10,412 nucleotides of DNA from Escherichia coli (GTDB taxonomy: Bacteria > Pseudomonadota > Gammaproteobacteria > Enterobacterales > Enterobacteriaceae). This document shows, piece after piece, positions 3,169-10,243 of the stretch (position 1 is its first letter; each line of letters starts with the position of its first letter). The stretch lies in NCBI RefSeq assembly GCF_003334255.1, contig NZ_QOWU01000084.1. One strand, given 5' to 3'. The notes below the pieces were generated by a model, which worked only from the letters and a program-made list of their open reading frames with translations, was not told the origin of the DNA and did not search any database. Both the position numbers and the translations under genes were made by a program.

Positions 3169-3636
3169 ATGCTTAAACAGGTAGAAATTTTCACCGATGG
3201 TTCGTGTCTGGGCAATCCAGGACCTGGGGGTTACGGCGCTATTTTACGCTATCGCGGACGCGAGAAAACCTTTAGCGCTGGCTACACCCGCACCACCAAC
3301 AACCGTATGGAGTTGATGGCCGCTATTGTCGCGCTGGAGGCGTTAAAAGAACATTGCGAAGTCATTTTGAGTACCGACAGCCAGTATGTCCGCCAGGGTA
3401 TCACCCAGTGGATCCATAACTGGAAAAAACGTGGCTGGAAAACCGCAGACAAAAAACCAGTAAAAAATGTCGATCTCTGGCAACGTCTTGATGCTGCATT
3501 GGGGCAGCATCAAATCAAATGGGAATGGGTTAAAGGCCATGCCGGACACCCGGAAAACGAACGCTGTGATGAACTGGCTCGTGCCGCGGCGATGAATCCC
3601 ACACTGGAAGATACAGGCTACCAAGTTGAAGTTTAA
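3169..3636 (+). CDS. rnhA: Ribonuclease HI (155 aa)
   Basis: ATG at 3169 with AGGAAG at 3153-3158; translation [23 protein letters not shown]... carries the RNase H catalytic residues (TDGSC Asp, MELMAA Glu, STDSQY Asp, C-terminal His/Asp). The ORF-track N-terminal extension (from 3058) would run back across the dnaQ start and has no ribosome-binding site. Confidence 0.95.
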
Positions 3637-4355
3637 GCCTGTGGTTTACGACATTGCCGGGTGGCTCCAACCGCCTGGCGAATTCGTGGCTTGTTTTTAC
3701 TCTGTTTCATCGGATTTAGCGTTAAAGGAATAGTCCGTTTCCGGGCAACAATAAGTTGTAAGCAACCAAGCGCAGGAATATGCGCATTCAATAGTTTTCC
3801 TCCGTGTTTGTTCCACGGGAGAACGTGGAAACGGCTGGCGTGTAGCACTTCAAAATTCAACAAAGAGAGCCAGTCCAGCTGCCGCATCAGAGTAAACATC
3901 CGGCTGTTATAGGGCGAGGTTTTGCGCAATACCGGCACAAGTTTGCGTAATCCCATAAAACTGATGGGATTGAAGCCACTAATGACCAGCCAGCCATCAT
4001 CAATCAATACCCGATCGGCTTCACGCAATAAACGATGCGGATCGGTGCACCACGGCAATGTATGTGCCAGTAGACAAACATCAACGGATTTATCGGCAAA
4101 AGGAAGATGAAGTGGGTCCGCCTGTACCTGGACGGGCATTCCTTGCGCAGAAACATTCACTTGATGAGAAACCGCGCACGCTTCGCAATTGATTTCTGCG
4201 CTTAAATTGCCAATCTTAAGCAGATGAAAACCATACATTTTAGTGAACCACGGGTTGAGCTGGCGCTCCAGCGCCTTGCGATAAAGCTTTCCCCAGGGCA
4301 AATCGCCCCAGCAATCAGGAGCCACGACAGTTTGAGGGACTCTTGCCGGTTTCAT
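3633..4355 (-). CDS. yafS: Class I SAM-dependent methyltransferase-like protein YafS (240 aa), with a degenerate Gly-rich loop
   Basis: ATG at 4355 (plus 'cat' 4353-4355) with GGAAGG Shine-Dalgarno on the minus strand; the ORF-track start at 4373 is a GTG six codons upstream. Motif II/III-like segment [17 protein letters not shown]...[20 protein letters not shown]. The 3' end overlaps the rnhA stop by 4 bp. Confidence 0.85.
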
Positions 4356-6574: not shown

Positions 6575-6584
6575 CAAACCAGAT

Positions 6585-6620
6585 AATAAAAAGGCACCGA
6601 TTCCCCCGGTGCCTTTTTTA
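6585..6620. terminator. Bidirectional rho-independent terminator between convergent mltD and yafE
   Basis: Perfect 8-bp stem AGGCACCG (6592-6599) / CGGTGCCT (6607-6614) with 7-nt loop, flanked by an A-run upstream (6585-6592) and a T-run downstream (6614-6619), so it can terminate either strand; lies between the mltD stop (6574) and the yafE stop (6622). Confidence 0.75.
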
Positions 6621-6621
6621 T

Positions 6622-7245
6622 TTATGCCGCTTTATGTGCATCTACCATGATGATATCACTGGTGAAAAAGCCATCATTCTGCAAGGCAAAATACGTTCTC
6701 ACCTCTGTCGATGCGCTCTGTTGGTAAATGCGAATAGCGTCTACTAACGCTTCTGGCGTACGCATTCTCGCGACCCATGAAGAAAATTCCAGCGGTAACT
6801 TATCTGTAATTAAATTATCAACTATCAGATTGGCTTCATTGATTAACGTCAACCACTCACCGCTGGCGTAGTTTCGTACGTGAGAGGTATCGCGTAATGC
6901 TTCTACCGTCTGTAACCAGATGTCGCGCACTGGGTGACCCGGAGACATTACGTCCATCACAATCAGCCTACCGCCAGGTTTCAATATCCTATTCACTTCT
7001 CGCAGTGCTGCACCAACATCATGCCAGTGATGGGCAGAATAACGGCTGATAACAATATCAAATGCGTTATCGGCAAATGGCAGACTTTCGGCATATCCCT
7101 GGCGGGTGGTGATATTTTTCAGTTGCCGGGCTTCGGCAGCTTGTGCCACGACATCCAGCATGTGGGCAGATAAGTCATACGCCACCACCGCGCTCACGTT
7201 TTGCGCAGCGCCAAACGTTGGTCTGCCCTGTGGCAGACCTGACAT
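6622..7245 (-). CDS. yafE: SAM-dependent methyltransferase-like protein YafE (207 aa); begins inside the canonical motif I region and lacks strand beta1
   Basis: ATG at 7245, only 3 nt after the yafD TAA stop (operon arrangement, same frame); class I methyltransferase motifs: post-I VVAYDLSAHML, motif II LPFADNAFDIVISRYSAHHW, motif III LKPGGRLIVMDV; no hh(D/E)hGxGxG strand is encoded upstream in any frame. Confidence 0.85.
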   Translation of the reverse strand: MSGLPQGRPTFGAAQNVSAVVAYDLSAHMLDVVAQAAEARQLKNITTRQGYAESLPFADNAFDIVISRYSAHHWHDVGAALREVNRILKPGGRLIVMDVMSPGHPVRDIWLQTVEALRDTSHVRNYASGEWLTLINEANLIVDNLITDKLPLEFSSWVARMRTPEALVDAIRIYQQSASTEVRTYFALQNDGFFTSDIIMVDAHKAA

Positions 7246-7248
7246 ACC

Positions 7249-8100
<852 letters not shown>

Positions 8101-8289: not shown

Positions 8290-9204
8290 ATGAAAGCCAC
8301 GTCGGAAGAACTCGCCATTTTTGTTTCGGTCGTCGAAAGCGGCAGCTTTAGCCGGGCAGCGGAACAATTAGGGCAAGCAAACTCAGCGGTAAGCCGGGCG
8401 GTGAAAAAGCTGGAGATGAAACTTGGCGTTAGCCTGCTTAATCGGACCACGCGACAACTTAGCCTGACGGAAGAAGGCGAGCGTTATTTTCGTCGCGTAC
8501 AGTCAATTTTGCAGGAGATGGCAGCGGCAGAATCAGAAATTATGGAGACGCGTAATACACCGCGTGGACTGTTACGGATCGATGCCGCAACTCCAGTGGT
8601 GCTGCACTTTCTGATGCCGTTAATTAAGCCTTTCCGTGAACGCTATCCGGAAGTCACTTTGTCGCTAGTCTCCTCCGAAACGATTATTAATTTGATCGAA
8701 AGAAAAGTGGATGTCGCGATACGCGCTGGTACGTTAACGGATTCCAGCTTACGTGCCAGGCCGTTATTTAACAGTTATCGAAAAATTATCGCCTCCCCCG
8801 ATTATATTTCCCGCTACGGGAAGCCAGAAACGATCGACGATTTAAAGCAACATATTTGCCTGGGATTCACTGAACCCGCTTCCCTCAATACCTGGCCGAT
8901 AGCCCGTAGCGATGGACAATTACATGAGGTGAAGTACGGTTTGTCATCCAATAGTGGGGAAACACTGAAACAGCTTTGCCTGAGTGGCAACGGGATTGCG
9001 TGTTTGTCCGACTACATGATCGACAAAGAAATCGCTCGCGGAGAATTGGTGGAGTTAATGGCAGATAAAGTGTTGCCAGTGGAAATGCCATTCAGTGCCG
9101 TCTATTACAGCGACCGTGCGGTAAGTACGCGCATCCGGGCTTTTATCGATTTCCTTAGCGAGCATGTAAAAACAGCTCCCGGAGGAGCTGTCAGAGAGGC
9201 TTAA
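8290..9204 (+). CDS. yafC: LysR-family transcriptional regulator (304 aa)
   Basis: ATG at 8290 with AGGAG at 8280-8284; N-terminal winged-HTH typical of LysR-type regulators ([56 protein letters not shown]), followed by a periplasmic-binding-protein-like effector domain; divergent from yafD-yafE. Confidence 0.9.
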
Positions 9205-10004
9205 TCCCATTCAGGAGCCAGACCTTCCGGGCTAACCAGGCGGTCGTTGCAATCCAGTGCGGCGATCGCTTTTTTATCTTCGGCATCAAGCTGTAAATTT
9301 TGTGCCTTAAGATTACTTTCCAGGTTTTTACGTTTAGTAGAAGAAGGAATTACTGAGTAACCTTCCCCCATAGCCCACGCCAGAATCACTTGTGCCGGAG
9401 TCGCATTGTGTTTAGCTGCGATACGAGCAATAACCTCATCTTTCAGGGCCTTACCATACGCCAGCGTCATATAGGAAGTAATATGGATGCCGTGCTGTTT
9501 AGCCCAGGCAACCACTTTACGGTTTTGCAGATAAGGAGAGAGTTCAATCTGGTTAGTAGCGATGTTTTCAGCACCAACAGCAGCAATCGCTTTTTCCATC
9601 AACGGGATCGTGAAGTTGGAAATACCGATCTCACGCGTCAGCCCTTGTTTTTTGGCTTCCAGCAGCGCCTGCATAAACTCTTCAACAGAGACTTCATCGT
9701 TTGGTGACGGCCAGTGGATTAGCGTCAGATCAACATAATCGGTACGCAATTTTTGCAGGCTCTCTTTCAGACTTGGGATCAATTTGTCTTTGCTGAGATT
9801 TTCAATCCAGATTTTAGTGGTGATGTAGAGTTCATGACGTGGCACGCCACTTTCTGCAATCGCCTGACCTACTGCGGCTTCGTTATCATAGATTTGTGCG
9901 GTATCAATTGCGCGATAACCAAGTTCAAGCGCCGTTATCACAGATGAAATAACAACGTCGTCTTTCAGACGGAAAGTACCTAAACCAAATGCAGGGATAG
10001 CCAT
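9201..10004 (-). CDS. dkgB: Aldo-keto reductase, 2,5-diketo-D-gluconate reductase B type (267 aa)
   Basis: ATG at 10004 with AAGAGG upstream on the minus strand; AKR catalytic tetrad context visible ([10 protein letters not shown] with Asp/Tyr, ITTKIW Lys, LIHWP His); NADPH-binding C-terminal region; stop overlaps the yafC stop within TTAA (9201-9204). Confidence 0.9.
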
Positions 10005-10166: not shown

Positions 10167-10243
10167 TGGCGGAACGGACGGGACTCGAACCCGCGACCCC
10201 CTGCGTGACAGGCAGGTATTCTAACCGACTGAACTACCGCTCC
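10167..10243 (-). tRNA. aspU: tRNA-Asp (anticodon GUC), 77 nt, distal tRNA of an rRNA operon
   Basis: Sequence identical to the copy at 2164-2240; sits 52 nt downstream (on the minus strand) of the 5S rRNA. Confidence 0.97.

Follow-up and report, generated by a model that had tools for sequence, protein, structure and literature searches.

The window, by which we mean the whole stretch of 10,412 nucleotides of Escherichia coli DNA analyzed here, is collinear with positions 228,759–239,170 of the K-12 MG1655 chromosome in reverse complement, with 51 mismatches and no indels; a K-12 position is obtained as 239,171 minus the window position. Several E. coli chromosomes match the segment 3000–4500 with 100% identity. 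The window contains two tail-to-tail gene pairs, rnhA/yafS and yafC/dkgB, whose positions are given below together with the tetramers in which the genes meet.

3169..3636, plus strand: rnhA, ribonuclease HI (155 aa); stop TAA at 3634–3636; from the Nissle and K-12 annotation, tblastn, and a search for in-frame stops
3633..4355, minus strand: yafS, class I SAM-dependent methyltransferase (240 aa); stop TAA read from 3635 to 3633; Pfam Methyltransf_11 on the orthologues
3633..3636, no strand assigned: tetramer TTAA common to the rnhA and yafS stops; the sequence reads gaagtTTAAgcc, in the context gaa gtT TAA gcc
8290..9204, plus strand: yafC, LysR-type regulator (304 aa); stop TAA at 9202–9204; from the RefSeq annotation and orthologues
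9201..10004, minus strand: dkgB, aldo-keto reductase (267 aa); stop TAA read from 9203 to 9201; from the RefSeq annotation and orthologues
9201..9204, no strand assigned: tetramer TTAA common to the yafC and dkgB stops; the sequence reads gaggcTTAAtcc, in the context gag gcT TAA tcc

In the mechanical list of open reading frames, the plus-strand frames end at 3636 and 9204 and the minus-strand frames at 3633 and 9201, and the RefSeq annotations of MG1655 and of the identical stretch in E. coli Nissle let both pairs overlap by the same 4 nt. The two TTAA overlaps described in the original prediction are thus correct, sequence, reading frames, and RefSeq being in agreement. TTAA reads TAA on both strands, and the sequence and the ORF ends leave zero intergenic space at either junction, as had been stated. 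The four gene names proposed there are likewise borne out by the RefSeq annotation of Nissle and MG1655, the orthologues, and the Pfam assignments. The four proteins are found at full length with 68–100% identity across genera and carry the expected domains (RNase_H, Methyltransf_11, HTH_1 with LysR_substrate, and Aldo_ket_red, respectively). Both pairs are accordingly members of the 4-nt stop/stop class, i.e., genuine genes on opposite strands, placed tail to tail, with exactly 4 bases in common.

The remainder of the window contains two further convergent junctions. The third in the window is that of mltD (plus strand) and yafE (minus strand), which contrasts with the two junctions above in having a spacer of 47 bp (6575–6621), filled by a textbook bidirectional terminator, in which an A-tract, a hairpin, and a T-tract follow one another; the hairpin at 6588–6618 is AAAAAGGCACCG-ATTCCCC-CGGTGCCTTTTT. 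The fourth, ykfM/yafT, has a 136-bp gap and belongs to the left 2.1 kb, which holds K-12-like yafU, ykfM, and yafT. Two tRNA-Asp genes with identical anticodon, aspV and aspU, are located on the minus strand at 2164–2240 and 10167–10243, and the right end of the window enters the 5S rRNA gene of rrnH. In the region 6622–7251, the yafE gene encodes 207 aa here and in K-12, with its start (7245) 3 nt after the stop of yafD (7249–7251). The orthologue in E. coli Nissle, Citrobacter, Salmonella, Enterobacter, and Pseudescherichia vulneris has 256–257 aa and a gap of ca. 77 bp, and it seems that a deletion of ca. 222 bp took the N-terminus of yafE and the spacer in the K-12-like lineage.

Terminator motifs inside the neighboring genes

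It had also been claimed that genes converging in this way have no room for a terminator. The absence of a spacer stands, but the absence of terminators does not follow from it, because hairpin/U-tract motifs for dkgB, yafC, and rnhA are located inside the coding sequence of the respective neighbor.

9168..9192, minus strand: predicted intrinsic terminator of dkgB, in the last 12 codons of yafC; hairpin and U5, ΔG −15.7 kcal/mol
9238..9275, plus strand: candidate intrinsic terminator of yafC (predicted only), in the last ca. 24 codons of dkgB; top match of the terminator scan, ΔG −19.9
3647..3698, plus strand: candidate intrinsic terminator of rnhA (predicted only), in the last ca. 21 codons of yafS; ΔG of the fold −24.0 kcal/mol, z = −2.2 for the 101-nt context

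The dkgB hairpin starts 8 nt past the stop codon and reads, on the minus strand, GACAGCUCC-UCCG-GGAGCUGUU followed by UUUAC. Positions 9184–9190 pair with 9173–9179 (CAGCUCC/GGAGCUG), the loop is formed by 9180–9183, and the U5 tract occupies 9172–9168. The motif thus combines a G+C-rich stem of 7–9 bp with a U-tract, as expected for an embedded terminator, and a simple terminator scan did not list it. It overlies the tail of YafC, outside the region that aligns in other genera. The same hairpin is found in Lelliottia, Citrobacter, Enterobacter asburiae, Franconibacter, and two unclassified Enterobacteriaceae. Over 10 distinct sequences from 7 genera, 98.6% of the stem cells are paired and the loop varies freely; one pair changes from U-A to C-G in three taxa, which may be a single event, and a score as high as the observed one was obtained in 2 of 500 shuffles. 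The hairpins that Kosakonia, Dickeya, and Pseudescherichia carry at the corresponding position are unrelated.

The candidate for yafC begins 34 nt past the stop of the gene and comprises a stem of 13–14 bp (9238–9271) and a U6 tract (9270–9275); within dkgB, a 13-bp stem is followed by U6. The U6 tract comes from two Lys codons of DkgB, and the hairpin forms better in the yafC sense because four of the stem pairs are G-U. Escherichia, Lelliottia, Citrobacter, and E. asburiae all have the U6 tract; it is missing in Kosakonia, where a hairpin with a U-tract lies instead within the 36-bp spacer. We retain the yafC hairpin as a prediction only, since its covariation is no better than that of shuffled or slid controls.

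A nested hairpin (3647–3688) lies ca. 10 nt downstream of rnhA, with an 11-bp inner stem (3654–3664 with 3671–3681) and an outer stem. It is followed by GCUUG and then by UUUUU at 3694–3698. The simple scan missed this candidate because the U-run begins 5 nt after the stem, and for the same feature the structure resembles an intrinsic terminator only in part, having a stable fold and a U5 that is not adjacent to the stem. Judged from the sequence, it is a weaker candidate than those of dkgB and yafC, and outside Escherichia the hairpins at its position differ. On the yafS side, no motif of E. coli reaches the thresholds; a weak hairpin with UUCGUUUU, ca. 45–75 nt downstream, occurs in some other genera only.

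We have also looked for published 3′ ends of the four genes. The supplements of Adams et al. 2021, queried by gene name and K-12 coordinate, list no mapped 3′ ends or Rho termination regions for them, and a gene-name search of the TERMITe tables gave no 3′ ends for rnhA, yafS, yafC, or dkgB.

A bidirectional terminator acting at the TTAA junctions was considered and ruled out, because the U-tract is found on one strand only: the plus-strand tail of 9168–9192 is UCAGAGAGG, and the minus strand of 3647–3698 has no U-tract after the stem. U-tracts serving both directions were found only at the mltD/yafE junction.

The two junctions in other genomes

The original prediction proposed to check whether the TTAA overlap is conserved across species. 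Both overlaps are present across E. coli genomes, in Escherichia, and beyond that genus. Strain-specific overlaps can be ruled out, since nearly all complete E. coli genomes (5,397 and 5,412 of 5,426) give a gap-free alignment of the 91-bp junction segments at ≥95% identity. For the wider comparison, the sample consisted of one genome per species from a yafS scan and of contigs encoding diverged YafC proteins.

For rnhA/yafS, the −4 register, in which the stops overlap by 4 nt, is kept in 17 of 21 enterobacterial loci from at least nine genera. These are all seven Escherichia lineages, two Salmonella, Citrobacter freundii, Enterobacter asburiae, P. vulneris, Franconibacter pulveris, two Kosakonia, Enterobacter sp. 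Bisph1, and one Lelliottia. The tetramer varies among TTAA, TTAG, and CTAA, and the C-terminal residues differ. In a second Lelliottia the two stops abut (gap 0), and in three deeper-branching taxa the overlap amounts to 41–47 nt. As to the gene order, the promoters of rnhA and dnaQ are divergent and the tails of rnhA and yafS convergent in enterobacteria. Thioalkalivibrio has a yafS-like methyltransferase gene, rnhA, and dnaQ all on one strand, the methyltransferase ORF overlapping the rnhA start by 8 nt. Compared with this co-directional order, the enterobacterial arrangement suggests that rnhA alone was inverted in that lineage.

The history of yafC/dkgB can be followed more closely. Its −4 overlap is present in all seven Escherichia lineages, in one of which yafC ends in TAG (TTAG in the orientation of the window). 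It also occurs in P. vulneris, where the longer YafC (309 aa) and the unrelated upstream sequence show an independent origin. At nine other loci, which belong to seven named genera and two unclassified Enterobacteriaceae, the genes are separated by 11–66 bp: 21 bp in Citrobacter, 29 in E. asburiae, 31 and 32 in Lelliottia, 36 in Kosakonia, 13 in Franconibacter, 11 in the two unclassified Enterobacteriaceae, and 66 in Dickeya. The junction of Citrobacter freundii, GGTTAA-AGAGTACAAAGGATTGGGCAA-TTAATCCCA, can be compared with GCTTAATCCCA of E. coli. The Escherichia state is what an exact deletion of 25 bp between two TTAAs would give, with the lengths of YafC (304 aa) and DkgB (267 aa) unchanged. 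The overlap is derived in Escherichia, and the sequences fit a deletion of the 25-bp spacer between the TTAAs. The alternative origin, in which a lost stop extends one of the reading frames, was rejected for the Escherichia overlap on the basis of this deletion and the equal protein lengths. The dkgB hairpin is older than the overlap, because genera that retain a spacer of 13–32 bp carry it as well.

In two strains the pairs have been separated naturally. In E. coli 55989, an IS4-family element (ISVsa5) is inserted between yafC and dkgB exactly at the TTAA, with a 9-bp target duplication, GGCTTAATC. In strain FFFEB2, IS26 is located between rnhA and yafS, again exactly at the TTAA, with an 8-bp target duplication, GTTTAAGC. 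The TTAA is copied in the duplication in both cases, and all four genes are of full length with their stops kept. Intact genes therefore do not depend on the physical overlap.

Other aspects of the yafC neighborhood vary as well. In Salmonella (subsp. arizonae and another S. enterica), dkgB is missing between tRNA-Asp (aspU) and yafC, and yafC converges on the tRNA-Asp gene, with a hairpin terminator in between. A gene for a 391-aa MFS transporter is divergent from yafC in Citrobacter, Enterobacter, Franconibacter, and Dickeya and absent from Escherichia, Salmonella, and P. vulneris. Dickeya retains the convergent yafC-dkgB pair, the rest of its neighborhood being different.

Frequency, origin, and consequences of the overlaps

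To put the two overlaps into perspective, we use seven 50-kb stretches of the MG1655 annotation (350 kb) away from the present locus, which contain 50 convergent CDS junctions. Four of these have the −4 arrangement (8%; 95% interval roughly 2–19%), namely nei/abrB (CTAG), mntP/rlmA (TTAA), exoX/ptrB (TTAG), and yfeH/ypeB (TTAA), the sequences of which were checked. Three of the four allowed tetramers are thus represented, and gaps of 0, 1, 2, and 3 nt are found among the other junctions of the sample. TAA is the commonest stop codon of E. coli, and since TGA is unable to take part, TTAA is the tetramer expected in the majority of cases.

The sampled fraction, applied to ca. 660 convergent junctions, gives ca. 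50 sites of this type per genome with a wide interval, while the older literature implies ca. 20. With 20–50 sites, ca. 0.5–3 chance pairs within 5.6 kb are expected genome-wide, and the chance of at least two −4 junctions in one given 10.4-kb window is ca. 0.7–2%. Two of the sampled −4 junctions are 20.5 kb apart. The view that two such junctions in 10 kb are notable is accordingly not upheld: the arrangement accounts for 8% of the sampled convergent junctions and is a known modal class, and its double occurrence within the window is a mild coincidence without signal.

The class itself was described by Lillo & Krakauer 2007 (Biol Direct 2:22, PMC2174442), who name the 4-nt stop/stop tetramers TTAA, CTAA, TTAG, and CTAG and report a jump in the distribution of overlap lengths at length 4. 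They count 58 convergent overlaps in E. coli, with rho-independent terminators inside the partner gene in 21 of the 58. The −4 class is thus a known mode among convergent overlaps.

The proposal that each transcript extends antisense into the neighboring gene is supported and in fact already published. ExcludonFinder (NAR 2025, PMC12288877) lists dkgB-yafC and yafS-rnhA in its Table 1, among 165 convergent excludons of MG1655, defined there as transcription units that overlap in 50% or more of 58 RNA-seq samples from MG1655. The same work predicts overlapping terminators in 146 of the 165 convergent pairs and reports a higher synteny of excludon pairs in general. This list also includes three of the four other −4 pairs of our sample, together with pdeD-yoaE (gap 3) and yebW-pphA (gap 0), and the call is nearly automatic for expressed pairs whose coding sequences overlap or abut.

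On the basis of these results, the two overlaps are very probably ordinary products of genome compaction, i.e., independent examples of the commonest tail-to-tail overlap in bacteria. TAA and TAG are nearly self-complementary, with TTA and CTA on the opposite strand, so that converging frames could interlock their stops and leave the proteins unchanged. Compaction would drive pairs to the −4 state either by deletion of a short spacer or by extension of a reading frame to the next stop, and once it is reached, no neutral site would be left between the genes and the arrangement would tend to persist. Each mRNA would then run ca. 30–75 nt past the TTAA into the coding sequence of its neighbor and end at a terminator overprinted on the last codons of that gene, for which there is a clear motif in the case of dkgB and predicted ones for yafC and rnhA. 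The predicted 3′ ends are at 9168–9172 on the minus strand for dkgB (K-12 229,999–230,003, plus strand), at 9271–9277 on the plus strand for yafC (K-12 229,894–229,900, minus strand), and at 3694–3700 on the plus strand for rnhA (K-12 235,471–235,477, minus strand). The 3′ end of yafS may be set by Rho, by a weak site, or by collision of polymerases. The resulting 3′ ends are predicted to be complementary over ca. 110 nt for yafC/dkgB (9168–9277), which would be scored as a convergent excludon by RNA-seq surveys. The overlaps, the genes, their spread over the taxa, the base rate, and the embedded hairpin/U-tract motifs are shown directly; we infer the 3′ ends, the persistence, and likewise the lack of a dedicated regulatory role.

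A different reading is that the overlaps are selected regulatory excludons, in which colliding polymerases, cleavage of the paired 3′ ends by RNase III, or both would let one gene lower its partner; RNase HI might, for example, be tuned by transcription of yafS, or dkgB be opposed by the LysR regulator YafC. Both pairs reach the convergent-excludon score in half or more of the 58 samples, and such pairs show higher synteny in general (ExcludonFinder, PMC12288877), but the call is nearly automatic and extends to other −4, gap-0, and gap-3 pairs. The convergent adjacency of yafC and dkgB is kept even in the different neighborhood of Dickeya, but the overlap as such is replaced by spacers of 11–66 bp in nine other loci, and natural IS insertions part both pairs without loss of a gene. 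In addition, we found no report of reciprocal expression of either pair in the literature searched, nor evidence for a regulatory role of the overlaps at the two loci. We consider this reading unlikely. A point for it, and against compaction, is the rnhA/yafS register, kept in at least nine genera although stop codons and C-termini change, which could reflect selection rather than a mutational trap. A version confined to this pair, in which antisense read-through from yafS sets the RNase HI level, or the reverse, and selection maintains the overlap, appears quite improbable to us; if true, it would place an enzyme with a central part in R-loop removal under the control of a conserved excludon. 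That the register has persisted so long may be explained without function, as no neutral position exists between the genes.

It is also conceivable that the overlaps have no transcriptional consequence at all, the two transcripts being rarely present simultaneously or ending near the stops by Rho, processing, or 3′ trimming. The absence of the four genes from the curated 3′ ends and Rho regions of the Term-seq tables that were searched suggests low expression, and yafS has no terminator motif in E. coli, both of which would agree with such a reading. It is nevertheless very improbable, because the transcription units overlap in most RNA-seq samples (ExcludonFinder, PMC12288877) and because the hairpin and U5 located 8–33 nt past the dkgB stop imply that a terminated dkgB mRNA covers the last 11–12 codons of yafC. 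That one gene of each pair is unreal or ends elsewhere, as an artefact of annotation or ORF calling, is extremely improbable: the general point that ORF lists are mechanical is met by stops that are fixed by the reading frame and by the full-length conservation and expected Pfam domains of the four proteins across genera.

Returning to compaction as the preferred explanation, the locus carries little weight as a discovery, but it offers a clean worked example of tail-to-tail packing, with interlocked stops, overprinted terminators, and complementary 3′ ends. For annotation and engineering, it implies that the terminator or the stop of the partner may be lost when the 3′ end of yafC, dkgB, or yafS is deleted or recoded. 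The two strains with IS insertions and the Citrobacter-type spacer are ready-made controls for effects of the overlaps on expression. The class has been known from 2007 or earlier, and a catalogue of 2025 already contains both pairs; minor additions of the present analysis are the origin of the yafC/dkgB overlap by spacer deletion, the conserved dkgB hairpin in yafC, the taxonomic spread, and the base rate.

Finally, the two junctions can be compared with the systems described previously. Bidirectional termination and polymerase collision at convergent pairs are attributed to Ju et al. 2019 in the account given in bioRxiv 10.1101/2022.10.23.513370. As portrayed there, the setting is the same as here, namely convergent pairs whose transcripts end in a common region; the TTAA junctions differ from the bidirectional terminators of that account in having no single two-way hairpin, the U-tract at dkgB being on the minus strand only. 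Head-on collision of polymerases is a plausible contributor where a terminator is not seen, as for yafS. Both pairs are explicitly listed among the convergent excludons of ExcludonFinder; those excludons rest on overlap of RNA-seq coverage, and the membership of both pairs is by that coverage definition, membership in the functional sense being putative. The agreement with the class of Lillo & Krakauer is equally close. The geometry is the same, the stops sharing the two central bases and the tetramer being among the allowed four, and the terminators must likewise be located in the coding sequence of the partner, so that the present pairs show no difference in kind from that class.
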